A DNA stretch of 64,000 bases from Eubacteriales bacterium (GTDB lineage Bacteria; Bacillota; Clostridia; Oscillospirales; CAG-382): assembly GCA_045593165.1 (NCBI GenBank), contig JAZNWF010000004.1, positions 216-64,215 on the forward strand, read 5' to 3'. The translations under genes were made by a program, and so were the position numbers. This document shows, piece by piece, positions 6,543 to 16,924 of the stretch (within the stretch, counting starts at the first letter, position 1; every line of letters begins with the position of its first letter). A model generated the notes under the pieces. That model was not told where the DNA came from. It ran no database searches and saw only the letters and a list, made by a program, of their open reading frames with translations.

Positions 6543-6829
6543 GAACTTAAATGCGTTTGAGCAGGAACAAGTAGATTTAGACGGGCCCATACAGAGAGTT
6601 GTCGGTTGGTGCGAGGCAACGGGAAAAGCTATTTTGAATTCATCCTGTGAGCTGTGCACCGAACAAAAGGTTATCTTTTAAGTAAGCTGCAACGGGCGTT
6701 CCCGTAACAGAACAAGAGTGTTATTGCACTCCCCGAGGCCGCAATCGCGAGAAAGCGGTAAATAGAGGTGGTACCACGAGTCTTCTCGTCCTCTGTATTC
6801 TTTTCAGGAATACAGAGGATTTATTTTTT
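6543..6829 (+). promoter_or_regulatory. T-box riboswitch leader, specifier UUC (Phe)
   Basis: Stem I has GA motifs (GAgCAGGA / TCCTGtGA), an AGAGAG bulge and a TGGTGCGAG distal loop. The specifier loop reads GAA-TTC-A (TTC at 6639-6641). The T-box sequence is GAGGTGGTACCACGAG (6765-6780). The terminator is CCTCTGTATTC/GAATACAGAGG plus a T-run (6790-6829). Confidence 0.85.
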
Positions 6830-6859
6830 GTAAATTATTTTAATATAAAGGTGATAAAA

Positions 6860-8167
6860 ATGGAACAAAGGTATTATCAAAAAGAAATTGAGACCATGCC
6901 CGTTGAGGAGATGAAAAAGCTCCAATCCGAAAAGCTGGTACGTCAGGTAAAGCACGTTTATGAAAACGTTCCTTATTACCGTAACCTTATGGATGAAAAG
7001 GGTGTTAAGCCCGAAGATATCAACGGTATTGAGGATCTTCACAAGCTTCCCTTCCTTACCAAAGCCGATCTTCGCGATGCATATCCTTACGGACTTCTCG
7101 CAAAGCCGCTTGACGAATGCGTACGTATTCAGTCTACCTCGGGCACAACCGGACGCCGTGTTGTTGCTTTCTACACACAAAATGACGTAGACCTTTGGGA
7201 AGATTGCTGTGCACGTGCTATCGTTGCTGCCGGCGGAACCAACAAGGACGTATGTCAGGTTGCATACGGCTACGGTCTTTTCACAGGCGGTCCCGGTCTT
7301 AACGGCGGCTCACACCGTGTAGGTTGCTTGACGCTTCCTATGTCTTCGGGTAATACCGAACGTCAGATTCAATTTATGACCGACCTTTCCGCAACTATTC
7401 TTTGCTGTACCCCCTCCTACGCCGCATATATCGGCGAAACCTTGAAGGAAAAGGGCTATAAGCCCGAGGATATTCCCTTGAAGGCAGGTATTTTCGGTGC
7501 AGAGCCATGGACCGAGGAAATGCGCAAAAATATTGAAGAAACCTTGGGTATAAAGGCATACGACATCTACGGTCTTACCGAAACCTCCGGCCCGGGCGTG
7601 TCGTTCGAATGCTGTGAGCAGACCGGTATGCATATCAACGAGGACCACTTCCTTGCGGAAATTATTGATCCCGACACGGGCGAGGTTCTTCCCGAAGGAA
7701 GCAAGGGCGAGCTTGTATTCACCTCGCTCGACAAGGAGGCGTTCCCGCTTTTACGTTACCGCACACGTGATATCTGCGTGCTCTCGCGCAAGAAGTGCTC
7801 CTGCGGACGTACGCTTATTAAAATGGCGAAGCCAATGGGCAGAACCGACGATATGCTTATCATCCGCGGCGTAAACGTGTTCCCGAGCCAGATCGAAACC
7901 GTACTTCTTAACGAAGGATACGAGCCTAATTACCAGATCATCGTAGACAGACAGAACAACAACGACACGTTCGACATTAACGTTGAAATGACAGCAGAAA
8001 AATTCTCGGACAAGGTAACCGAAATTCTTGCTATGGAAAAATCTCTTGCAAACGCGATGAAGACTATGCTCGGCATCAATCCTACCGTTCATCTTGTCGC
8101 ACCCAAGACTATTGCGCGAAGCGAAGGCAAGGCTGTCCGCGTAGTTGACAAGCGCAAATTGGTTTAA
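6860..8167 (+). CDS. paaK: Phenylacetate--CoA ligase family protein (PaaK / F390-synthetase-like adenylate-forming enzyme)
   Basis: ATG at 6860 lies 6 nt after AAGGTG; the tracked start at 6851 is a GTG inside the RBS. Motifs seen: YYRNLMDEKGVKPEDI, LPFLTKADLRDAYP, QSTSGTTGRRVV, YGLTE, MLIIRGVNVFPSQIE. Confidence 0.85.
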   Translation: MEQRYYQKEIETMPVEEMKKLQSEKLVRQVKHVYENVPYYRNLMDEKGVKPEDINGIEDLHKLPFLTKADLRDAYPYGLLAKPLDECVRIQSTSGTTGRRVVAFYTQNDVDLWEDCCARAIVAAGGTNKDVCQVAYGYGLFTGGPGLNGGSHRVGCLTLPMSSGNTERQIQFMTDLSATILCCTPSYAAYIGETLKEKGYKPEDIPLKAGIFGAEPWTEEMRKNIEETLGIKAYDIYGLTETSGPGVSFECCEQTGMHINEDHFLAEIIDPDTGEVLPEGSKGELVFTSLDKEAFPLLRYRTRDICVLSRKKCSCGRTLIKMAKPMGRTDDMLIIRGVNVFPSQIETVLLNEGYEPNYQIIVDRQNNNDTFDINVEMTAEKFSDKVTEILAMEKSLANAMKTMLGINPTVHLVAPKTIARSEGKAVRVVDKRKLV

Positions 8168-8188
8168 TTAAAGAAAGGGGATATCACA

Positions 8189-8620
8189 ATGGCAATTAAA
8201 CAGTTGACCGTATTCGTAGAAAACAAACAGGGCGCGCTCGTTTCGATTACCGACACGCTCGCACAGAACAACGTGAATATCAGAGCCCTCTCGATTGCCG
8301 AAACAAACGATTTCGGTATACTCCGTCTTATTGTAAATGATGAAGCCACCGCTGAAAAGACTCTTGCGGAAAAGGGTTATCTTATAAAGGTGACAGAGGT
8401 AGTCGGTGTTAAGATAGGCGATGCACCCGGCAAGCTTACCGCCGCGCTCGATGTGCTTGACAGATCGGGTATCAATATGGAATATCTTTACGCGTTTATG
8501 GCGCGTACCGAAAAGCACGCATACGTAGTTCTTCGCGTTGAAGACAATGAAATTGCAGAGGCTGCACTCGAAAACGCAGGCTTCCACCTCATTACAGACG
8601 CAGATATCTGCAAGCTTTAA
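8189..8620 (+). CDS. Tandem ACT-domain (amino-acid-binding) protein
   Basis: 143 aa. Two beta-alpha-beta-beta-alpha-beta ACT-like halves are visible (LTVFVENKQGALVSITDTLAQNNVNIRALS and VGVKIGDAPGKLTAALDVLDRSGINMEYLY). It is co-operonic with paaK. Confidence 0.75.
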   Translation: MAIKQLTVFVENKQGALVSITDTLAQNNVNIRALSIAETNDFGILRLIVNDEATAEKTLAEKGYLIKVTEVVGVKIGDAPGKLTAALDVLDRSGINMEYLYAFMARTEKHAYVVLRVEDNEIAEAALENAGFHLITDADICKL

Positions 8621-8698: not shown

Positions 8699-8727
8699 TT
8701 GACAAACAAGGCGTATTGTGATAAAAT
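8699..8727 (+). promoter_or_regulatory. Sigma-A promoter of T-box operon 2
   Basis: TTGACA (8699-8704), 17-nt spacer, TAAAAT (8722-8727), with an upstream TGtGa. Confidence 0.65.
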
Positions 8728-8734
8728 TCATCAC

Positions 8735-9016
8735 AATAATAAACGCAGTGATGCGGAATAGTATGCAAAAGCATTCGCCGTACAGAGAGATGCCGTTTGG
8801 TGCGAGGCATTGGGAATTCTTTGCAGAACTCACCGCGGAGCGGCTGCCGTGAAAATCAGACGTAAGGGCAGACGGGAGCTCCCGTAACAGAGTAAAGATG
8901 TTTTTGCATCTAAGGGCATCCGCAACGGATGAAGAAGAGTGGTACCGCGGAAAAGTTAACTTTGTTTTTAACGTTTTCGTCTCTTTGAACCGACAAGGAG
9001 ACGGGAGCGTTTTTTT
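8735..9016 (+). promoter_or_regulatory. T-box riboswitch leader, specifier CUC (Leu)
   Basis: GA motifs GAtGCGG / CCGCgGA; AGTA in the 5' specifier loop; upper helix TGCAAA/TTTGCA; AGAGAG bulge; TGGTGCGAG distal loop. The specifier reads GAA-CTC-A (CTC at 8829-8831). The T-box sequence is AGAGTGGTACCGCGG (8936-8950). A terminator hairpin at 8972-9009 is followed by T7. Confidence 0.85.
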
Positions 9017-9070: not shown

Positions 9071-10459
9071 ATGAAAAAAATCAACATTTCCGATATCACA
9101 CTCAAAAAGCTTTCGCAGGATCGCAGCTTCTCGCTTCTTTTCCGTGAAAAGACCGCAATCGCAGTATGTGCAGATTCGCTCGGTGCAAACACTGTTGAGC
9201 TTGCACCCGTGAAGAACGCGCGCGAGGATGCTATCATTTGTAAAACGATCTCGCAAAACGTACGCAACGCAACACTAGCTATACCCGTAGGCTTTACTGC
9301 CGACGAGGTTCAGACTGCTTGGGAATGCATAAAGGATGCCAAATCTCCTCGTTTGCAGATAGAGATTCCCGCATCCACCGTTTTGATGGAATACACATAC
9401 CACATCAAATCCGAAAAAATGCTTACGAAAATTGCAGAATTGGTAAAATGTGCAAAATCGTTCTGCGAGGATATCGAATTCTCCGCGCTTGACGCAACGC
9501 GCGCAGACGTTGATTTTCTCGTTGCCGCGGCAAAGGAAGCAGAAAGTAACGGTGCGAGCATTATTACCATTTGCGATGATGCAGGAGTATCTCTCCCGCA
9601 AGATATCGCGAATCTTACCGCAAAGGTAAAGGAAAACGTATCCATACCTGTATACGTTCAGGTATCCGATAAAATCAACATGGCGGTCGCTTCTGCAATT
9701 GCGGCGATCTCCGCAGGTGCAGACGGTATCAAATGCGCTATGGCAGGCAAGGACGTTCTTCTCACCGGCGAGTTGGCTGATGCGCTTAAAGCCTGCAATT
9801 CGCAGATAGGCGCAGAAACCGATTTAAATAACACAAAAATCCATACAAGTATAGAGGATATGCTTTCCAATATCAATCACGAAGCATATGAAAACGAAGC
9901 AACAGTAAGTGAAAAGAAGAGAATGCTTCTCGATGCTGACAGCACAATTGCACAGGTAGCACATGCAACACAGATACTTGGCTACGAATTATCCGATTCC
10001 GATATCGGTAACGTACACAAGGCGCTTATCCAGGTATGTGAAAAGAAGGATACCGTAGGTGCAAAGGAGCTCGAAGCGCTTATTGCAAGCTCGGCTATGC
10101 AAGCTCCCTCTACATATCATCTCGAAAGCTACACTACCAACAGCAGTAATCTTGCAAGCTCTATGTCGCAGGTTACATTGAAATGCAACGGCGAAACCAT
10201 TTGCGGTGTCAGCACGGGCGACGGACCTATTGATTCGGCATTCCGAGCTATTGAACAGTGTATTGGCTTCCATTACGAATTAGACGATTTTCAGGTACAG
10301 TCCGTAACTGAAGGAAAGGAAGCGTTGGGCTCTGCTCTCGTACGCTTGCGTAACAACGGCAAGCTATATTCGGGTAACGGCATTTCGACCGATATTGTTG
10401 CGGCAAGCATAAGAGCATACATAAATGCACTCAACAAGATCGTATTCGAGGAGGCATAA
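9071..10459 (+). CDS. 2-isopropylmalate synthase (LeuA) paralog with degenerate catalytic motifs and an intact LeuA C-terminal regulatory domain
   Basis: It is collinear with LeuA, but DTTLRDGEQ is replaced by DITLKKLSQ, the H-x-H metal motif by QVSDK, and no HESGIHQDG is present. The C-terminus GDGPIDSAFRAIEQCI...GKEALGSALVRLRNNGKLYSGNGISTDIVAASIRAYINALNK matches the LeuA allosteric domain. Confidence 0.7.
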   Translation: MKKINISDITLKKLSQDRSFSLLFREKTAIAVCADSLGANTVELAPVKNAREDAIICKTISQNVRNATLAIPVGFTADEVQTAWECIKDAKSPRLQIEIPASTVLMEYTYHIKSEKMLTKIAELVKCAKSFCEDIEFSALDATRADVDFLVAAAKEAESNGASIITICDDAGVSLPQDIANLTAKVKENVSIPVYVQVSDKINMAVASAIAAISAGADGIKCAMAGKDVLLTGELADALKACNSQIGAETDLNNTKIHTSIEDMLSNINHEAYENEATVSEKKRMLLDADSTIAQVAHATQILGYELSDSDIGNVHKALIQVCEKKDTVGAKELEALIASSAMQAPSTYHLESYTTNSSNLASSMSQVTLKCNGETICGVSTGDGPIDSAFRAIEQCIGFHYELDDFQVQSVTEGKEALGSALVRLRNNGKLYSGNGISTDIVAASIRAYINALNKIVFEEA

Positions 10460-10460
10460 A

Positions 10461-12920
10461 ATGAAAATCGTATTCTCAACAAAAAACGTAAGCAGGTCAT
10501 CCTTTCTCGACACCTGCCGTTATGCGTACGATTACGGTTTTGAAGGCTTCGAAATATACGATGCCATCAAGGAGCGCAGTCAGCATCACGACAGCATTTT
10601 ACGCCGCGACCGTGTTTCAGACGCAAAAAGAAAGCTGATAAACCGCAATCTTTCCGTATCCGCACTCAGCTATCCCTATTCACTTGAACGTAACGACGCG
10701 AATGCGGAAACGATTTTGAAATACGTGGATATGGCGGCAAGCGCGGGCATCGCTTATATTATAGTCCGTATTGAAAATGAAGTTGAATTCGACGTATTAA
10801 AGGAAAAATTAGAGCCTGCAGTCAAGCGTGCAGAAATCTCCGACGTCGGTATACTTTTGGAAACCGTAGGATACCTTTCCGACACGGAAAAGGTAATAGA
10901 AATAATCAACCGCTTTTCTTCTGCCGCAATAGGCGCATCGTGGAACGTACGAGGCACTTATTTCGGCGCAGGTGAAACGGCTGAAACCACCATCAAGGTA
11001 CTCGGCGCATACATAAAATACGTACGCTTGGGCGATATGAAGGACGGCAAGACCGTGCTTATCGGAGAGGGCGAGCTTCCTGTGGAAAAGCTCCTCGGTG
11101 CGCTTTCCTCGCTGAATTTCGACGGATTTATCTGCGCGGCGTGGAACGAGGAAATAAACGACGCAGATATCGTGCTCACCCATTTCACAAATTACATCGC
11201 ATCTTTAAGCCGCGACAAAAAGGAGCACGACCGTTATTATTACAACCGCTCGAGAACCGGCACGTTCGTATGGAAGAAATACGACGTTATCGACGCAACC
11301 TTCTCCGACGTGCTTGACACAATGGTAGAAAACTACCCCGACCAGTACGCCTTCAAATACCCAACGCTTGATTACACGAGAACCTACGAGCAGTTCCGCC
11401 GTGACGTAGACGAATGTGCGGCAGCGCTCATTTCTTTGGGCGTAAAGGCGGGCGACCACGTCGCTGTTTGGGCAACCAACGTACCCGAATGGTATATTAC
11501 CTTCTGGGCAACCACAAAAATCGGTGCAGTTCTGGTAACGGTAAATACCGCATACAAGATTCACGAAATAGAATACCTGTTAAAGCAGTCCGACACTCAT
11601 ACGCTCGTTATGATCGAGTACTGTAAAGACATCAACTACAAGGAAATTATACAAGAGCTCTGCCCCGAGCTTGAAACGCTTACTCCCGGAAAACCGCTTT
11701 ATTCGAAAAACCTTCCCTTCTTGCGCAACGTTGTAACCGTTGGATTTTCGATGAACGGCTGTCTGGATTGGAATCAGATGCTTTCGCGTTCCTCGCTCGT
11801 TCCCCGCGAAGAAGTGCGCAGACGCGCTTCCTTGGTTAAGCCCGATGACGTATGTAATATGCAATATACCTCGGGTACGACAGGCTTCCCCAAGGGTGTT
11901 ATGCTCACTCACCGCAACATAGTAAACAACGGCAAGACAATCGGCGACAGAATGGACCTTTCCACCGCCGACCGTATGATGATACAGGTTCCGATGTTCC
12001 ATTGCTTCGGCATGGTGCTTTCGATGACCTCTATGATGACCCACGGCGGCACGCTTTGCCCTATTCCCTATTTCTCGCCCAAATCATCGCTTGCCTGCGT
12101 AAACGACGAGCACATAACCTGCTTCAACGGCGTTCCTACTATGTTTATCGCGATGTTCAACCACAAGGATTTTGCAAAAACCGACTTCTCGTATATGAGA
12201 ACCGGTATCATGGCAGGCGCAAACTGCCCTGCAGACCTTATGCGCCGTGCGGCAGATGAAATGAAGATGCGCGAGATAATCTCAGTTTACGGACAGACCG
12301 AGGCTTCGCCCGGCTGTACTATGGGCGAGGTAAACGAGGACATTGACCACCGCGTTGAAACGGTAGGCAGCCCCTTCCCCGGTGTTGAATGCAAGGTTAT
12401 CGACCCCGAAACGGGAGAAGAACTTCCCGACGGAGAAAGCGGCGAATTTGTAGCGCGCGGCTTCAATATTATGAAGGGTTATTACAAGATGCCCGAGGCA
12501 ACCGCACAAGCGATCGATGCTGACGGTTGGCTTCACAGCGGTGATATATGCTGTCGCACCCCCGACGGATACTACAAAGTAACCGGCAGATTGAAGGATA
12601 TGATAATCCGCGGCGGCGAAAACCTTTACCCGCGCGAAATCGAAGAGTTTTACCTTACCAACCCTAAGGTACGCGACGTTCAGGTTGTTGGCGTTCCCGA
12701 CGAAAAGTACGGCGAGGAATGCTGTGCGTGGGTAATACTCCACAAGGGCGAAACGGCAGACGAAAACGAAATGAAGGAATTCGGCAATGCGTTTATCGCG
12801 CGTCACAAGGTTCCGAGATATTTCCTTTTCGTCAATGAATTCCCGATGAATGCCGCAGGTAAAATACTCAAATACAAGATGCGTGACGAATCTGTTGAGA
12901 TTTTAGGGCTCAAAAAATAA
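10461..12920 (+). CDS. Fusion protein: xylose-isomerase-like TIM barrel (sugar phosphate isomerase/epimerase fold) plus an AMP-dependent acyl-CoA ligase (FadD/YngI-like)
   Basis: ATG at 10461 follows GAGGAGG; the tracked start at 10425 overlaps the upstream gene. About 270 N-terminal aa look like a TIM barrel (FEGFEIYD, ILLETVG, YVRLGD). The C-terminal part has AMP-binding motifs: MQYTSGTTGFPKGVMLTHRN, YGQTE, GWLHSGD, IIRGGENLYPREIE, AAGKILK. Confidence 0.75.
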   Translation: MKIVFSTKNVSRSSFLDTCRYAYDYGFEGFEIYDAIKERSQHHDSILRRDRVSDAKRKLINRNLSVSALSYPYSLERNDANAETILKYVDMAASAGIAYIIVRIENEVEFDVLKEKLEPAVKRAEISDVGILLETVGYLSDTEKVIEIINRFSSAAIGASWNVRGTYFGAGETAETTIKVLGAYIKYVRLGDMKDGKTVLIGEGELPVEKLLGALSSLNFDGFICAAWNEEINDADIVLTHFTNYIASLSRDKKEHDRYYYNRSRTGTFVWKKYDVIDATFSDVLDTMVENYPDQYAFKYPTLDYTRTYEQFRRDVDECAAALISLGVKAGDHVAVWATNVPEWYITFWATTKIGAVLVTVNTAYKIHEIEYLLKQSDTHTLVMIEYCKDINYKEIIQELCPELETLTPGKPLYSKNLPFLRNVVTVGFSMNGCLDWNQMLSRSSLVPREEVRRRASLVKPDDVCNMQYTSGTTGFPKGVMLTHRNIVNNGKTIGDRMDLSTADRMMIQVPMFHCFGMVLSMTSMMTHGGTLCPIPYFSPKSSLACVNDEHITCFNGVPTMFIAMFNHKDFAKTDFSYMRTGIMAGANCPADLMRRAADEMKMREIISVYGQTEASPGCTMGEVNEDIDHRVETVGSPFPGVECKVIDPETGEELPDGESGEFVARGFNIMKGYYKMPEATAQAIDADGWLHSGDICCRTPDGYYKVTGRLKDMIIRGGENLYPREIEEFYLTNPKVRDVQVVGVPDEKYGEECCAWVILHKGETADENEMKEFGNAFIARHKVPRYFLFVNEFPMNAAGKILKYKMRDESVEILGLKK

Positions 12921-13009: not shown

Positions 13010-13272
13010 ACAAACAACTATGACGAAGACGGTCGGATTGCCAAATCTTCAGAGAGTTGGCGGTTGCTGCGAGCCAACGATGAAGCTTTCCAATGACCCA
13101 TCACTTCCGAGTTGGAGGACCGAAAATTTTATGAGTAGGCTCCTTCCGTAAAGCTGCGTTAAAGCAAGGGCTTGTCAGAGCCTATAAGGTGGCGGAATTT
13201 ATTTCCGCAATTTGAGTGGTACCGCGAGTTGTATGACCCGTCTCAAAGCAAAACTTTGGGACGGGTTTTTTG
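13010..13272 (+). promoter_or_regulatory. T-box riboswitch leader, probable specifier AUC (Ile)
   Basis: GA motifs GAcGAAG / CTTCcGA; AGAGAG bulge; GTTGGC/GCCAAC helix with a GCTGCGA distal loop. ATC-A (13100-13103) sits directly 5' of the basal helix, in the same register as the other two T-boxes. The T-box sequence is TGAGTGGTACCGCGAG (13213-13228). The terminator is ACCCGTC/GACGGGT plus T6 (13236-13272). Confidence 0.75.
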
Positions 13273-13331
13273 TTTTATTCAAATCTGAATTATCCGTATG
13301 GAGCGTACAGAAACGAAAGGAGCAAAACGAC

Positions 13332-15632
13332 ATGGAAATGAATTTGAAAGAGGTAGCAGGCAGAATCAAAGCGCTGCGCGAGGCAAAGGGCTATTCGCAG
13401 GAGGAGCTTGCAAAGCTTACCGGTGTATCGGTTGAGGATTACAAGCTTTTAGAGCAGGGCGAAACCGATTTCAGCTTTACCTTCATCTACAAGTGTGCAA
13501 AGGCGTGCAACGTTGAGGTTGTTGACATTATCGAGGGTACGAGTACTACTCTTACCTCGTTTGCAATTACCCGTAAGGGCGAGGGTCTTGAAATAATTAA
13601 AAAGCAGGCAGGCGTTTATTACAACCTTGCACCTAAATTCAAGGATAAGCTTGCCGAGCCGTTTTTGGTAAAGATGCCCTATATGGCAGAGGAGCAGAAC
13701 GCGCCTATCAAGCTTAATTCGCACAACGGTCAGGAATTTGACGTTATCGTTAAGGGCTCACTCAAGGTCCAGGTCGGCGGACATATTGCCGTTTTGAACG
13801 AGGGTGACTCGATATTCTACAACAGTATCATTCCCCACGGTATGATTGCTGTAAGCGAGGGCGGATGTGAATTCCACGCTGTCGTTTTGAATCCGCAGGA
13901 CGGTGACTACGCCGAATCCTATCCCGAAGCACCGTTCATCGCCGCAAAGACCGCCATCTCCGAAAACACGGTAAAAACCGTTGCAGATAACTTTATCGAA
14001 TCCTCATACGACGAAAACGGCGTATTTAACGGTATCGCCTTCAAGAACGACGACAAATTTAATTTCGCGTTTGACTGTGTAGATGCTATCGCAGAAAAGG
14101 ACCCCGACAAGCTTGCTATGCTTTGGGTTTCCAACGATAAAGCTGAACGCAGATTCACCTTCCGCGATATGAAGCGTTACTCGGCAAAGACAGCCAACTA
14201 TTTTGAATCGCTCGGTATTAAAAAGGGCGACACCGTAATGCTTGTATTGAAGCGTCATTATCAATTCTGGTTCTGTATGCTCGCACTCCACAAGATCGGC
14301 GCGATCGCTATCCCTGCTACCAACCAGCTTGTTGAGCACGACTTTACGTACAGATACAAGGCTGCACAGGTTAAAGCAATCGTATGCACCGCAGATGGCG
14401 AGGTTTCAACCGAGGCAGAAAAGGCTGCAAAGGATTTTCCCGGCATGATCAAGGTTCTCGTTGGCGGCAAAAAGGACGGTTGGAACGACTTTAATCTTGA
14501 AATGGAACGCTTCAGCACTCATTACGAACGCACCGAAGATTCTCCCTGCGGAAATGATCCGATGCTGATGCTTTTCACCTCCGGAACAACCGGTTATCCC
14601 CGCATCGCAACGCATTCCTTCAAGTATGCCTTAGGTCACTACCCCACCGCAAGACATTGGCACAACGTCAATCCCAACGGTCTGCACTTCACCATCTCCG
14701 ATACAGGCTGGGGCAAGGCGCTTTGGGGCAAGCTTTACGGACAATGGCTCTGTGAAGCGGCTACCTTCACCTATGACTTCGACAGATTCCGTTCGGAAGA
14801 TATTCTTCCCCTCTTTAAGCAATATAACATCACTACCTTCTGCGCACCTCCTACAATGTACCGATTCTTTATCAAGGAAGACCTTTCGAAATACGATCTT
14901 TCCTCTATCGAATATGCCACCACTGCAGGCGAAGCGCTCAACCCCGAGGTATTCAATCAGTTCAAAAAGGCTACCGGTCTTACCATTATGGAGGGCTTCG
15001 GTCAGACTGAAACCACGCTTTCTATCGCAAACTTCGTAGGATCTACTCCCAAGATTGGCTCTATGGGTAAGCCCAGTCCCTTGTACGACGTCAAGATCCT
15101 CGATCCCGACGGAAACGAATGTAAGACGGGCGACACGGGTGAGATCTGTATCAGCACCAAGAACGGAACTCCTTGCGGCTTATTTATCGGATATTATCTC
15201 GACGAGGAAAAGACCAACGACGTTTGGCACGACGGTTATTACCACACAGGTGACCAAGCGACTATGGACGAGGACGGATATCTTTGGTACGTTGGACGTA
15301 TCGACGACGTTATCAAATCTTCCGGTTACCGTATCGGCCCGTTCGAGATCGAAAGCGTTATTATGGAGCTTCCCTACGTGCTTGAATGTGCTATCACGCC
15401 CGTTCCCGATGAGATCCGCGGTCAGATCGTTAAAGCGACCATCGTTCTCACCAAGGGCACTGTAGGCACTGACGCACTGAAAAAGGAAATTCAGGAATAC
15501 GTAAAGACACACACCGCACCTTATAAGTATCCCAGAATAGTAGATTTCGTTGACGAGCTTCCCAAGACCATCAGCGGCAAGGTAAGACGTGTCGAGATCC
15601 GCAAAAAAGATTTGGAAAAATCCAACGGTTAA
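13332..15632 (+). CDS. Tripartite fusion: XRE-type HTH plus cupin plus an AMP-forming medium/short-chain acyl-CoA synthetase (ACS/MACS family)
   Basis: ATG at 13332 follows AAGGAG; the tracked start at 13212 lies inside the T-box terminator. HTH_3: LKEVAGRIKALREAKGYSQEELAKLTGVSVEDYKLLEQGE. Cupin: NSHNGQEFDVIVKGSL...GDSIFYNSIIPHGM. ACS core: LFTSGTTGYPRIA, GFGQTE, YHTGD, SSGYRIGPFEIES, ISGKVRR. Confidence 0.8.
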   Translation: MEMNLKEVAGRIKALREAKGYSQEELAKLTGVSVEDYKLLEQGETDFSFTFIYKCAKACNVEVVDIIEGTSTTLTSFAITRKGEGLEIIKKQAGVYYNLAPKFKDKLAEPFLVKMPYMAEEQNAPIKLNSHNGQEFDVIVKGSLKVQVGGHIAVLNEGDSIFYNSIIPHGMIAVSEGGCEFHAVVLNPQDGDYAESYPEAPFIAAKTAISENTVKTVADNFIESSYDENGVFNGIAFKNDDKFNFAFDCVDAIAEKDPDKLAMLWVSNDKAERRFTFRDMKRYSAKTANYFESLGIKKGDTVMLVLKRHYQFWFCMLALHKIGAIAIPATNQLVEHDFTYRYKAAQVKAIVCTADGEVSTEAEKAAKDFPGMIKVLVGGKKDGWNDFNLEMERFSTHYERTEDSPCGNDPMLMLFTSGTTGYPRIATHSFKYALGHYPTARHWHNVNPNGLHFTISDTGWGKALWGKLYGQWLCEAATFTYDFDRFRSEDILPLFKQYNITTFCAPPTMYRFFIKEDLSKYDLSSIEYATTAGEALNPEVFNQFKKATGLTIMEGFGQTETTLSIANFVGSTPKIGSMGKPSPLYDVKILDPDGNECKTGDTGEICISTKNGTPCGLFIGYYLDEEKTNDVWHDGYYHTGDQATMDEDGYLWYVGRIDDVIKSSGYRIGPFEIESVIMELPYVLECAITPVPDEIRGQIVKATIVLTKGTVGTDALKKEIQEYVKTHTAPYKYPRIVDFVDELPKTISGKVRRVEIRKKDLEKSNG

Positions 15633-15703: not shown

Positions 15704-16924
15704 TTAAAGCGAATATTTACGGAATATCTTTTTACCCTTCTTGAGCTTGATGCCCTCAGCAAGCGCAGCTTCCGAAACGGTCTGACCGACGGAGGTTACC
15801 TTTTCACCGTCGATGCTGATGCCGCCCTGCTCGATAAGACGGCGGGCTTCACCCTTGCTCTTTGCAAGCTCGCCCAACACAAGAAGATCGATAACGCTGA
15901 TATTGCCGTCAACCAAAAGCGAAGCGTCTACAACGGTTGAGGGCATATTTGCGTCGTCGCCCTCGCCGCTGAAGAGTGCACGCGAGGTTGCTTCCGCCTT
16001 CTTTGCCTCTTCCTCGCCGTGAACGAGCTCGGTAAGGCTATACGCGAGTATGGATTTCTTTTCGTTGATGCGCGAACCGTCCCATTTTTCCATTTCGTCG
16101 ATTTCTTCGATAGGAATGAAGGTGAGCATACGGATGCACTTCATAACGTCAGCATCATCAACGTTGCGCCAATACTGATAAAATTCAAAGGGCGAGGTCT
16201 TGTTGGGATCGAGCCATACTGCATTGCCTGCGGTCTTGCCCATTTTCTTGCCCTGCGAGTCGGTAAGGAGGGTTATCGTCATCGCATTAGCGTCCTTGCC
16301 GAGCTTACGTCTTATAAGCTCGGTACCGCCGAGCATATTCGACCACTGGTCGTCGCCGCCAAACTGCAGATTGCAATCGTAGTTCTTGAAAAGATAATAG
16401 AAGTCGTAGGACTGCATTATCATATAGTTGAATTCGAGGAAGGAAAGACCCTTCTCCATTCTTTGCTTGTAGCATTCGGCTCTGAGCATATTGTTTACCG
16501 AGAAGCAGGCACCGACGTCGCGAAGCATATCAACGTAATTGAGGTTCAACAGCCAATCGGCGTTGGTGATCATCATTGCCTTATCTTCACCGAATTCGAT
16601 AAACTTTTCCATCTGCTTTTTGAAGCAATCGGCGTTATGGTCGATATCTTCCTTGGTGAGCATTTTTCTCATATCGCTTCTGCCCGAGGGGTCGCCGATC
16701 ATTGTCGTGCCGCCGCCGATAAGCGCAATAGGCTTGTTGCCCGCCATCTGAAGACGCTTCATAAGAGTGAGCGCCATAAAATGACCTGCGGTAAGGCTGT
16801 CTGCGGTGCAGTCAAAGCCGATATAAAACTTTGCCTTGCCGTTATTGACAAGCTCTCTGATCTCTTCCTCATTGGTTACCTGAGCTATCAGTCCGCGCGC
16901 TTTTAATTCTTCATAAATCTGCAT
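15704..16924 (-). CDS. tyrS: Tyrosine--tRNA ligase
   Basis: 406 aa. The class I HIGH-like motif (TADSLTAGHF), the KMGKT (KMSKS) motif and a C-terminal S4 domain are present. Confidence 0.95.
   Translation of the reverse strand: MQIYEELKARGLIAQVTNEEEIRELVNNGKAKFYIGFDCTADSLTAGHFMALTLMKRLQMAGNKPIALIGGGTTMIGDPSGRSDMRKMLTKEDIDHNADCFKKQMEKFIEFGEDKAMMITNADWLLNLNYVDMLRDVGACFSVNNMLRAECYKQRMEKGLSFLEFNYMIMQSYDFYYLFKNYDCNLQFGGDDQWSNMLGGTELIRRKLGKDANAMTITLLTDSQGKKMGKTAGNAVWLDPNKTSPFEFYQYWRNVDDADVMKCIRMLTFIPIEEIDEMEKWDGSRINEKKSILAYSLTELVHGEEEAKKAEATSRALFSGEGDDANMPSTVVDASLLVDGNISVIDLLVLGELAKSKGEARRLIEQGGISIDGEKVTSVGQTVSEAALAEGIKLKKGKKIFRKYSL

Follow-up and report, generated by a model that had tools for sequence, protein, structure and literature searches.

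A xylose-isomerase-like barrel fused to an AMP-dependent acyl-CoA ligase is widespread in gut Clostridia: a candidate isovalerate-CoA ligase under a leucine T-box

The window analysed here is a stretch of 64,000 nucleotides from an Eubacteriales bacterium of the order Oscillospirales (assembly GCA_045593165.1, contig JAZNWF010000004.1, positions 216 to 64,215 of the forward strand). Its gene at 10461–12920, on the forward strand, codes for a single protein in which a xylose-isomerase-like TIM barrel is fused to an AMP-dependent acyl-CoA ligase. The longest open frame at this position runs from 10425 to 12920; read from the ATG at 10461, it encodes 819 amino acids without any internal stop codon and ends with a TAA at 12918–12920, downstream of which lie the next promoter and an Ile T-box (13011–13248). 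The ATG is 1 nt past the TAA of the upstream gene, and a Shine-Dalgarno sequence, GGAGG, is found 6 nt 5' of it (10450–10454).

Residues 1–250 (10461–11210) form the (beta/alpha)8 barrel, according to Pfam, AlphaFold2 and Foldseek; the match to the Pfam family AP_endonuc_2 (PF01261) covers residues 20–229 and scores 53–56 bits, for a cut-off of 31.1. A linker (residues 251–287, 11211–11321), which contains the conserved sequence YYNRxxTGxxVWKK, leads into the ligase. The N-terminal domain of the latter (AMP-binding, PF00501, residues 288–675, 11322–12485) scores 321.4 bits against a gathering cut-off of 29.9, and its C-terminal domain (AMP-binding_C, PF13193, residues 726–801, 12636–12863), which includes the A10 lysine K801, scores 56.9 bits against a gathering cut-off of 24.5. 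The other core motifs are also present: A3, TSGTTGFPKG (residues 470–479, 11868–11897), A5, YGQTE (610–614, 12288–12302), A7, GWLHSGD (689–695, 12525–12545), just past the Pfam AMP-binding envelope, and the A8 hinge, TGRLKD (708–713), while GGENLYPREIE (718–728, 12612–12644) stands immediately 5' of the C-terminal domain. With both Pfam domains and motifs A3, A5, A7, A8 and A10, the protein is a member of the ANL acyl-CoA ligases. AlphaFold2 predicts the full chain with a mean predicted local distance difference test (pLDDT) of 86, the short weak stretch being residues 251–257, between barrel and ligase; the barrel by itself reaches a pLDDT of 92. A previous reading based on the sequence alone (hereafter the sequence-only reading) had described one 819-residue frame joining a barrel of about 270 residues to a complete AMP-binding ligase, and had listed four motifs, TSGTTGFPKG, YGQTE, GWLHSGD and GGENLYPREIE; the frame and the Pfam matches bear out the former, and all four motifs are in the protein.

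The sequence-only reading considered this fusion unusual. It is genuine, but it is not rare: the architecture is common in the order and is also present in other classes of the phylum. A word-indexed search of proteins grouped in 90%-identity clusters (sources NCBI, ENA, JGI and Logan) returned clusters the best 120 of which are 88–93% identical to the query, are 817–829 residues long and all have the same three domains; they are named just "AMP-binding protein" or "AMP-dependent synthetase" and come from Ruminococcaceae, Oscillospiraceae or Clostridia metagenome-assembled genomes (MAGs). At least 596 relatives were confirmed by tblastn in species-representative genomes. The 80 that were kept for study are 68–91% identical to the window protein and belong to gut and rumen MAGs (Oscillospiraceae, Acutalibacteraceae, Christensenellaceae, Ructibacterium and similar); 77 of them have the whole frame of 815–824 residues, and the other three are interrupted by a contig or locus end. 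In the window's order, the barrel profile matches 331 of 401 genomes, and at least 112 of the 401 have an open frame of at least 780 residues (112 among the 150 matches listed); the six genomes that were checked, that of the window (G000) and five congeners, have one such fusion each. Of 401 genomes sampled across the phylum, 48 match the barrel strongly; the fusions from outside the order number about 18 and are spread over at least ten families, other classes included. The fusion is common among gut Clostridia, and few other forms of this ligase are as frequent in the order.

There is virtually no chance that an error of assembly or gene calling has merged two adjacent genes. The halves are indeed separate genes in some other genomes, though in the opposite order, and nothing else speaks for such an artefact, whereas hundreds of independent assemblies share the uninterrupted frame of 815–824 residues and the sequence of the linker is conserved among the relatives. 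Since the architecture recurs across independent clusters, species genomes and order-wide frames, we exclude the artefact. A search of sequencing runs listed no RNA run, and the best DNA run shares only 0.21 of the words. The sequence-only reading had also envisaged that the architecture might prove common and already assigned a function; common it is, but no function has been assigned to it in the literature that we searched, where we found no paper describing a TIM–ligase fusion, its function, or acyl-CoA ligases controlled by T-boxes. A survey of T-boxes published in 2008 mentions no CoA ligase (PMC2494555).

The operon to which the fusion belongs begins with a sigma-70-like promoter, read from the sequence as TTGACA followed by the TG-extended GATAAAAT (8699–8728, forward strand). 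A Leu T-box leader follows at 8739–8987 (Rfam RF00230, 127.8 bits for a cut-off of 93, forward strand), with the specifier CUC at 8829–8831, the conserved T-box sequence GTGGTACCGCGG at 8939–8950 and, after it, a terminator hairpin and U-run at about 8990–9015. This leader is directly 5' of a LeuA-like gene (9071–10459), not of the fusion, and both genes form one operon; the Leu T-box that the sequence-only reading had placed over the fusion is thus confirmed by its score and its specifier, with the LeuA-like gene in between. Judging from these elements, transcription of the operon would proceed only when uncharged tRNA-Leu stabilises the antiterminator. The link with leucine extends beyond the window. 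We fetched 20 fusion loci from 17 families: the conserved T-box sequence is found immediately upstream in 14 of them, and all of the 14 leaders that were aligned (including that of the window and those of two operons in which barrel and ligase are split) have a Leu specifier, CUC in 13 cases and CUG in one.

The LeuA-like gene (forward strand) codes for a protein of 462 residues, hereafter pLeuA, which has lost the RDGxQ and HxH motifs and about 30 residues after the barrel, and has kept the LeuA_dimer regulatory domain, which is highly conserved; the same losses and the same retained domain are seen in all seven orthologues that were aligned. The sequence-only reading spoke of a "pseudo-LeuA", and the loss of these motifs indeed predicts a catalytically dead paralogue. 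In the clade of the window, pLeuA is immediately 5' of the fusion in each of the 78 loci that reach far enough upstream, with a gap of 5–69 nt in 77 of them and of 294 nt in the remaining one. It occurs in 101 of the 401 genomes of the order, in 17 families, next to the barrel match wherever the coordinates of both are listed (more than 40 were compared), and the fusions linked to it form a single clade in the ligase tree (support 100/99).

The genomes that have pLeuA appear to have no genuine LeuA. A LeuA that scores over the TIGR00973 cut-off is present in none of the 101 pLeuA genomes and in 115 of the 300 others, counts which overstate the independence of the observations because the genomes are related and many are incomplete MAGs; the exclusion nevertheless recurs in several families. 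In the genus of the window, G000 and G037 have pLeuA and no LeuA, whereas the reverse holds for seven congeners, which possess a LeuA-type enzyme but lack pLeuA. In G037 and G373, which are 98–99% complete, we found no LeuA and no LeuC-sized gene. Genome G091 has another arrangement: at L043:5917–12252, one strand carries in succession the genes of a genuine LeuA (scoring over the cut-off) and of a CimA-like synthase, a Leu T-box, and a TIM–ligase fusion of the plain type. In G143, a congener of G091, the dead-LeuA operon is found in place of this row. The row of genes in G091 may be the ancestral neighbourhood from which the dead LeuA arose.

Regarding the ligase half, its nearest NCBIfam family is NF009233 (PRK12583), fatty acid CoA ligase, which it matches with 666.2 bits over positions 16–556 of the 558 of the profile; this is below the curated cut-off of 832 bits, and the protein falls outside the family. 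In acetyl-CoA synthetase, a Trp at the residue that precedes QTE limits the substrate to acetate; the residue at this position is a Gly in the ligase half (YGQTE). The ligase half is 96% identical, at the protein level, between the window (10461–12920) and L050:9371–11830 of G143, which belongs to a different family. Recent horizontal transfer was considered as the cause and rejected, since the synonymous sites are saturated; an identity of 96% despite this saturation suggests an unusually strong constraint. Congeners of the window's species have the other type of fusion, with a barrel that is only 27% identical.

The sequence of a ligase, a reductive carboxylation and a transamination is the classical route by which rumen bacteria convert branched-chain fatty acids into amino acids; Allison and Bryant reportedly described this reductive carboxylation of branched acids in the rumen. 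Genes for such steps are found near some of the fusions. In L049 the order is pLeuA, fusion, and a PFOR-type oxidoreductase of 1181 residues. In L046 and L047, a T-box precedes an MbcS-like ligase, a CbiA-like P-loop protein, the alpha, beta and gamma subunits of a 2-oxoacid:ferredoxin oxidoreductase (OFOR) and a class IV aminotransferase, and the cluster then continues with a Leu T-box, pLeuA and the fusion. The genome of the window codes for an OFOR of three subunits, the alpha subunit of which shares 63% identity with its L046 counterpart, for IorAB beside a second PaaK, and for one class IV aminotransferase. An operon switched on by uncharged tRNA agrees with a pathway that runs in the anabolic direction. 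The sequence-only reading had put forward the ligase half as a candidate isovalerate-CoA ligase; the link to a Leu T-box across families and the presence of OFOR and aminotransferase genes in some of the loci make it a good candidate, and we consider it probable that the ligase half is the isovalerate-CoA ligase of a leucine salvage route.

In the xylose-isomerase-like fold, a metal ion is held by a Glu-Asp-His-Glu tetrad at the ends of strands 4 to 7. The window protein has E134, N162, R189 and A227 at these positions, that is to say, changes D162N, H189R and E227A, and it has also lost H165 and R168, which we take to be the positions that contact the substrate in the solved epimerases of this fold. 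On the contrary, E134, D162, H165, R168, H189, D192 and E227 are all kept in 13 fusions without pLeuA and in 14 stand-alone barrels. Within the clade linked to pLeuA the sites differ: its early branches (L045–L047) have lost H164, H165 and R168, and L046 has in addition D162S and E227V; L049 has E134K and D162H; the subclade of the window has E134, N162, R164, G165, F168, R189, D192 and A227. The sequence-only reading had suggested a second catalytic step for the TIM half, which is not supported for this protein, three of the four metal ligands as well as H165 and R168 having been lost. Outside the dead-LeuA clade these residues are kept, such a step remains plausible for relatives whose site is intact, and the barrel of most lineages looks, from its residues, like a working metalloenzyme.

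In the altered site, E134, N162, R164, R189 and D192 are invariant in all of the 121 close clusters; in the 80 species genomes, the most distant of which is 68% identical, they are near-invariant. Position 227 alone is variable (A, S, D, L, M, E, N), and the old active-site region, residues 151–200, is the best-conserved part of the barrel. The invariance of these substitutions implies that they do not result from drift. In comparisons between the window, G037 and G143, the synonymous sites are saturated (proportion of synonymous differences, pS, 0.75–0.87) and the proportion of nonsynonymous differences, pN, is 0.14–0.20 for the barrel versus 0.04–0.06 for the ligase, so that the barrel evolves about 3.5 times faster; saturated synonymous sites with low pN indicate that the barrel is still constrained, more loosely than the ligase. 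On balance we think that the barrel of this protein is non-catalytic, with somewhat less confidence than we have in the substrate of the ligase. It may be a clue that the genomes in which the chemistry of the barrel can be dispensed with are exactly those without the isopropylmalate route.

Barrel and ligase also occur as separate genes. Of 14 loci retrieved in which a barrel of about 270 residues is encoded by itself, five have the barrel gene directly 3' of an orthologous ligase gene (551–566 residues), an order which is the reverse of that in the fusion, and in a sixth locus, L054, one gene lies between the two. A Leu T-box precedes the split pair in L054 and L057, and the T-box sequence motif is present in L058, with no match at the cmscan threshold. 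In the ligase tree, the split and fused forms are sister clades, each fully supported. Since the barrel has been kept beside the same ligase in two arrangements, it is a functional partner of the ligase rather than a chance neighbour: the coupling predates the fusion, and the barrel is an ancient, obligate companion of the ligase, either fused to it or encoded by the next gene.

Some stand-alone TIM genes lie beside guaB, by appearance as plain synteny. Around the fusion loci that were examined, pLeuA is the one general conserved neighbour that we found, and no dehydrogenase is conserved beside the gene. An Amidohydro_2 gene (PF04909, 268–319 residues) comes directly after the fusion or the split pair in three loci (L045:5347–6153, L046:11941–12753 and L058:8633–9592) and lies a few genes away from the fusion in L031 and L034. 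A GFO/IDH/MocA oxidoreductase gene (about 354 residues) adjoins the fusion in L031–L033, divergently in L031 and L032, and is a few genes away in L044. Together with the lack of a T-box in L031–L033, this MocA neighbour hints at another use of the intact barrel there.

With a confidence slightly better than even, we favour the following explanation: the gene codes for a CoA ligase of short or branched-chain acids, likely isovalerate, controlled by a Leu T-box, whose barrel is a non-catalytic module. Uncharged tRNA-Leu would stabilise the antiterminator of the Leu (CUC) T-box, and pLeuA and the fusion would then be co-transcribed. The ligase would activate isovalerate to isovaleryl-CoA, which would be reductively carboxylated to 4-methyl-2-oxopentanoate by an OFOR, and the latter would be transaminated to leucine. 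This route from isovalerate would substitute for the isopropylmalate pathway, absent in this lineage. The remodelled barrel, whose pocket keeps E134, N162, R164, R189 and D192, would be a structural or ligand-binding module: it may maintain the fold or the oligomeric state of the ligase, bind a ligand through its two arginines, or dock the leucine-sensing pLeuA.

Regarding this last option, the dead LeuA possibly has in the barrel a partner for docking or allostery. The coincidence of the gain of pLeuA with the loss of the site, a single event on the tree, fits the idea, and the co-occurrence data likewise agree with the scaffold for the pseudo-LeuA that the sequence-only reading had suggested. 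Prediction of a complex between the TIM domain of the window protein alone and pLeuA returned a score of 0.00, which counts neither for nor against binding. A more elaborate version, which we regard as speculative and rather unlikely, is that two unrelated pseudoenzyme TIM barrels, the fused domain and pLeuA, would make up a leucine-sensing allosteric module that gates isovalerate-CoA ligase, while the TIM enzyme of those relatives whose site is intact would carry out an undescribed step tied to the ligase. If so, the salvage route would be under a feedback control equivalent to that which LeuA exerts over the de novo route.

Several observations weigh against the salvage reading. The substrate of the ligase, the direction of the pathway and any role of the barrel are inferred. 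The oxidoreductase and the aminotransferase are reversible and would also suit the degradation of leucine or the provision of lipid primers. In the window's own genus, none of the four plain fusions (L031–L034) matches the T-box pattern, and cmscan of L034 is negative. The genomes on which the mutual exclusion of pLeuA and LeuA was counted are related to one another and many are incomplete MAGs; the genome of the window is itself only 73.6% complete. The loss of the metal site maps to one clade and is therefore a single evolutionary event, and the two invariant arginines in the old site could equally form a new, metal-free catalytic or ligand site.

This last point leads to an alternative in which the TIM half is still an enzyme, with E134, N162, R164, R189 and D192 as a metal-independent site that would, for example, tautomerise or isomerise a keto-acid or acyl-CoA intermediate. 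The conservation of the domain does peak in the old active-site region (residues 151–200), its replaced residues are invariant with no sign of drift, it is under purifying selection, and its relatives resemble active metalloenzymes that are always coupled to the ligase. We nevertheless find this improbable: H165, R168 and three of the four metal ligands are gone, the fourth ligand position is free to vary, the conversion of isovalerate into leucine requires no isomerisation, and the rate at which the domain evolves is about 3.5 times that of the ligase. It may also be that isovaleryl-CoA, or another branched acyl-CoA, is made by the ligase as a primer for branched-chain fatty acids, the Leu T-box serving to spare leucine. 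The neighbouring ligase (13332–15632) best matches the model of MbcS, which makes lipid primers in Staphylococcus aureus (PMC10026030), and the reversibility of the oxidoreductase and aminotransferase leaves room for this direction. However, in L046 and L047 these two enzymes are encoded codirectionally and directly 3' of a ligase gene preceded by a T-box, and if the genes are co-transcribed, inducing them for catabolism in amino-acid shortage would be wasteful; the exclusion between the pLeuA operon and genuine LeuA (0 of 101 versus 115 of 300) fits a replacement of leucine biosynthesis; and a leucine-binding regulatory domain has been retained beside the ligase. We consider a role in lipid synthesis quite unlikely.

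About as unlikely, or slightly more so, is that the ligase takes another acid related to leucine, either isobutyrate, as a source of 2-oxoisovalerate for the isopropylmalate route, or 2-hydroxyisocaproate, and that the intact TIM enzyme prepares or converts this acid. This proposal would account for the coexistence of intact TIM fusions with LeuA (for instance in G009 and G091, with leuA, cimA, the T-box and the fusion placed one after another) and for the loss of TIM catalysis exactly where the isopropylmalate route is missing. On the contrary, the ligase halves of the two types are 64–73% identical, which does not require a change of substrate, a Val-type or Ile-type T-box ligase is already available for the other branched acids, and there is no conserved dehydrogenase beside the gene.

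It has been known since the 1960s that rumen and gut anaerobes can use fermentation acids as precursors of leucine, isoleucine, valine and phenylalanine. In the literature that we searched, the clostridial genes that activate these acids, and their control, are not established; the fusion is a widespread and concrete candidate for the leucine branch, under a tRNA-sensing switch. If the isovalerate route is real, it would explain how many uncultured gut species that lack the normal pathway and are predicted to be leucine auxotrophs can live on the isovalerate of their neighbours. The barrel, which is intact in some lineages, a separate protein in others, and stripped of its metal site yet conserved where there is a dead LeuA, offers a natural case of conversion of an enzyme domain. 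Hundreds of database entries named only "AMP-binding protein" could receive a more specific name.

The operon of the fusion is one of three in the window in which T-box leaders stand in tandem, each ahead of an acyl-CoA ligase operon: the leader at 6547–6796 (specifier UUC, Phe) precedes a PaaK-like ligase and an ACT protein, that at 8739–8987 (CUC, Leu) precedes the dead LeuA and the fusion, and that at 13011–13248 (AUC, Ile) precedes a fusion of a helix-turn-helix (HTH) domain and a cupin with an MbcS-like ligase. The Phe operon (6547–8620), with its PaaK-type phenylacetate-CoA ligase and tandem-ACT protein, is likewise found near the fusion in G037 (L035) and G143 (L050). The third operon (HTH_3, Cupin_2 and MbcS-like ligase, 13011–15632) has a counterpart under a T-box in L046:695–3292, whose specifier is apparently GUA (Val) instead of AUC (Ile), so the amino acid sensed by this leader may, from these specifiers, differ between genomes. 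Four T-boxes were found in the whole genome of the window (73.6% complete). The fourth, on contig C5 (L065:3157–4746), is ahead of a gene for a pyridoxal phosphate-dependent (PALP) enzyme of 405 residues; a homologous gene comes directly after the fusion in L047 (12107–13336), and that of L048 (7140–8444) is under an apparent T-box of its own, a pattern match for which cmscan is negative. No T-box was found ahead of an aminoacyl-tRNA synthetase gene in this genome, tyrS (15704–16924 in the window) being without one. Last, we note a match to the small RNA Gut-1 at 1092–1168 (58.6 bits for a cut-off of 50), of which there is a further copy in L041.

The fusion can be compared to several characterised systems. 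The barrel has the same fold as UlaE (3CQJ), L-ribulose 3-epimerase (8YEB), AsbF (3DX5) and IolI (1I60), with Foldseek template modelling (TM) scores of 0.70–0.77 and identities of 12–19%, the top match being UlaE (TM 0.77, E 4.6e-14); the window barrel retains only the first Glu of their E-D-H-E metal tetrad. Sequence searches with the TIM half are less informative: no NCBIfam equivalog comes near its cut-off (the best are fructoselysine 3-epimerase, hydroxypyruvate isomerase and 5-keto-L-gluconate epimerase), the search of solved structures gave a chance-level match to TatD (E 0.12), and the matches in the ESM Atlas were limited to generic "sugar phosphate isomerase/epimerase" clusters, which score below 0.9. 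A precedent for fusing such a barrel is 5HMQ (Foldseek ranks 37 and 42), where it is joined to 4-hydroxyphenylpyruvate dioxygenase, likewise an acid-metabolising enzyme to which it is unrelated; the partner domain and the context of the barrel are different in that case, and there is no relation to a T-box. As for pLeuA, it derives from 2-isopropylmalate synthase, LeuA, whose leucine-binding regulatory domain it keeps; unlike LeuA, it is catalytically dead as judged from its motifs, and it is a protein separate from the fusion.

The ligase half shares the two-domain ANL fold and all the core motifs with the ligases of the PRK12583 group, and its nearest solved chains are 8WEU/8WEV (fatty-acyl-CoA/feruloyl-CoA synthetase; E 1.6e-77 for 8WEU over residues 196–544 of the ligase part), FadD13 (3R44) and malonyl-CoA synthetase (4FUQ). 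Unlike the fusion, none of these ligases (NF009233, 8WEU/8WEV, 3R44, 4FUQ) has an N-terminal TIM barrel or a known control by a T-box. MbcS from S. aureus and MacsMa from Methanosarcina carry out the chemistry that we propose, the ATP-dependent activation of a branched C4–C5 acid, but they are about 25% identical to the ligase half and have no TIM barrel. MbcS, to whose group the neighbouring gene at 13332–15632 belongs, supplies lipid primers and feeds lipid synthesis rather than amino-acid synthesis (PMC10026030). Set beside these systems, the fusion stands as an uncharacterised but frequent variant within a known class of enzymes.

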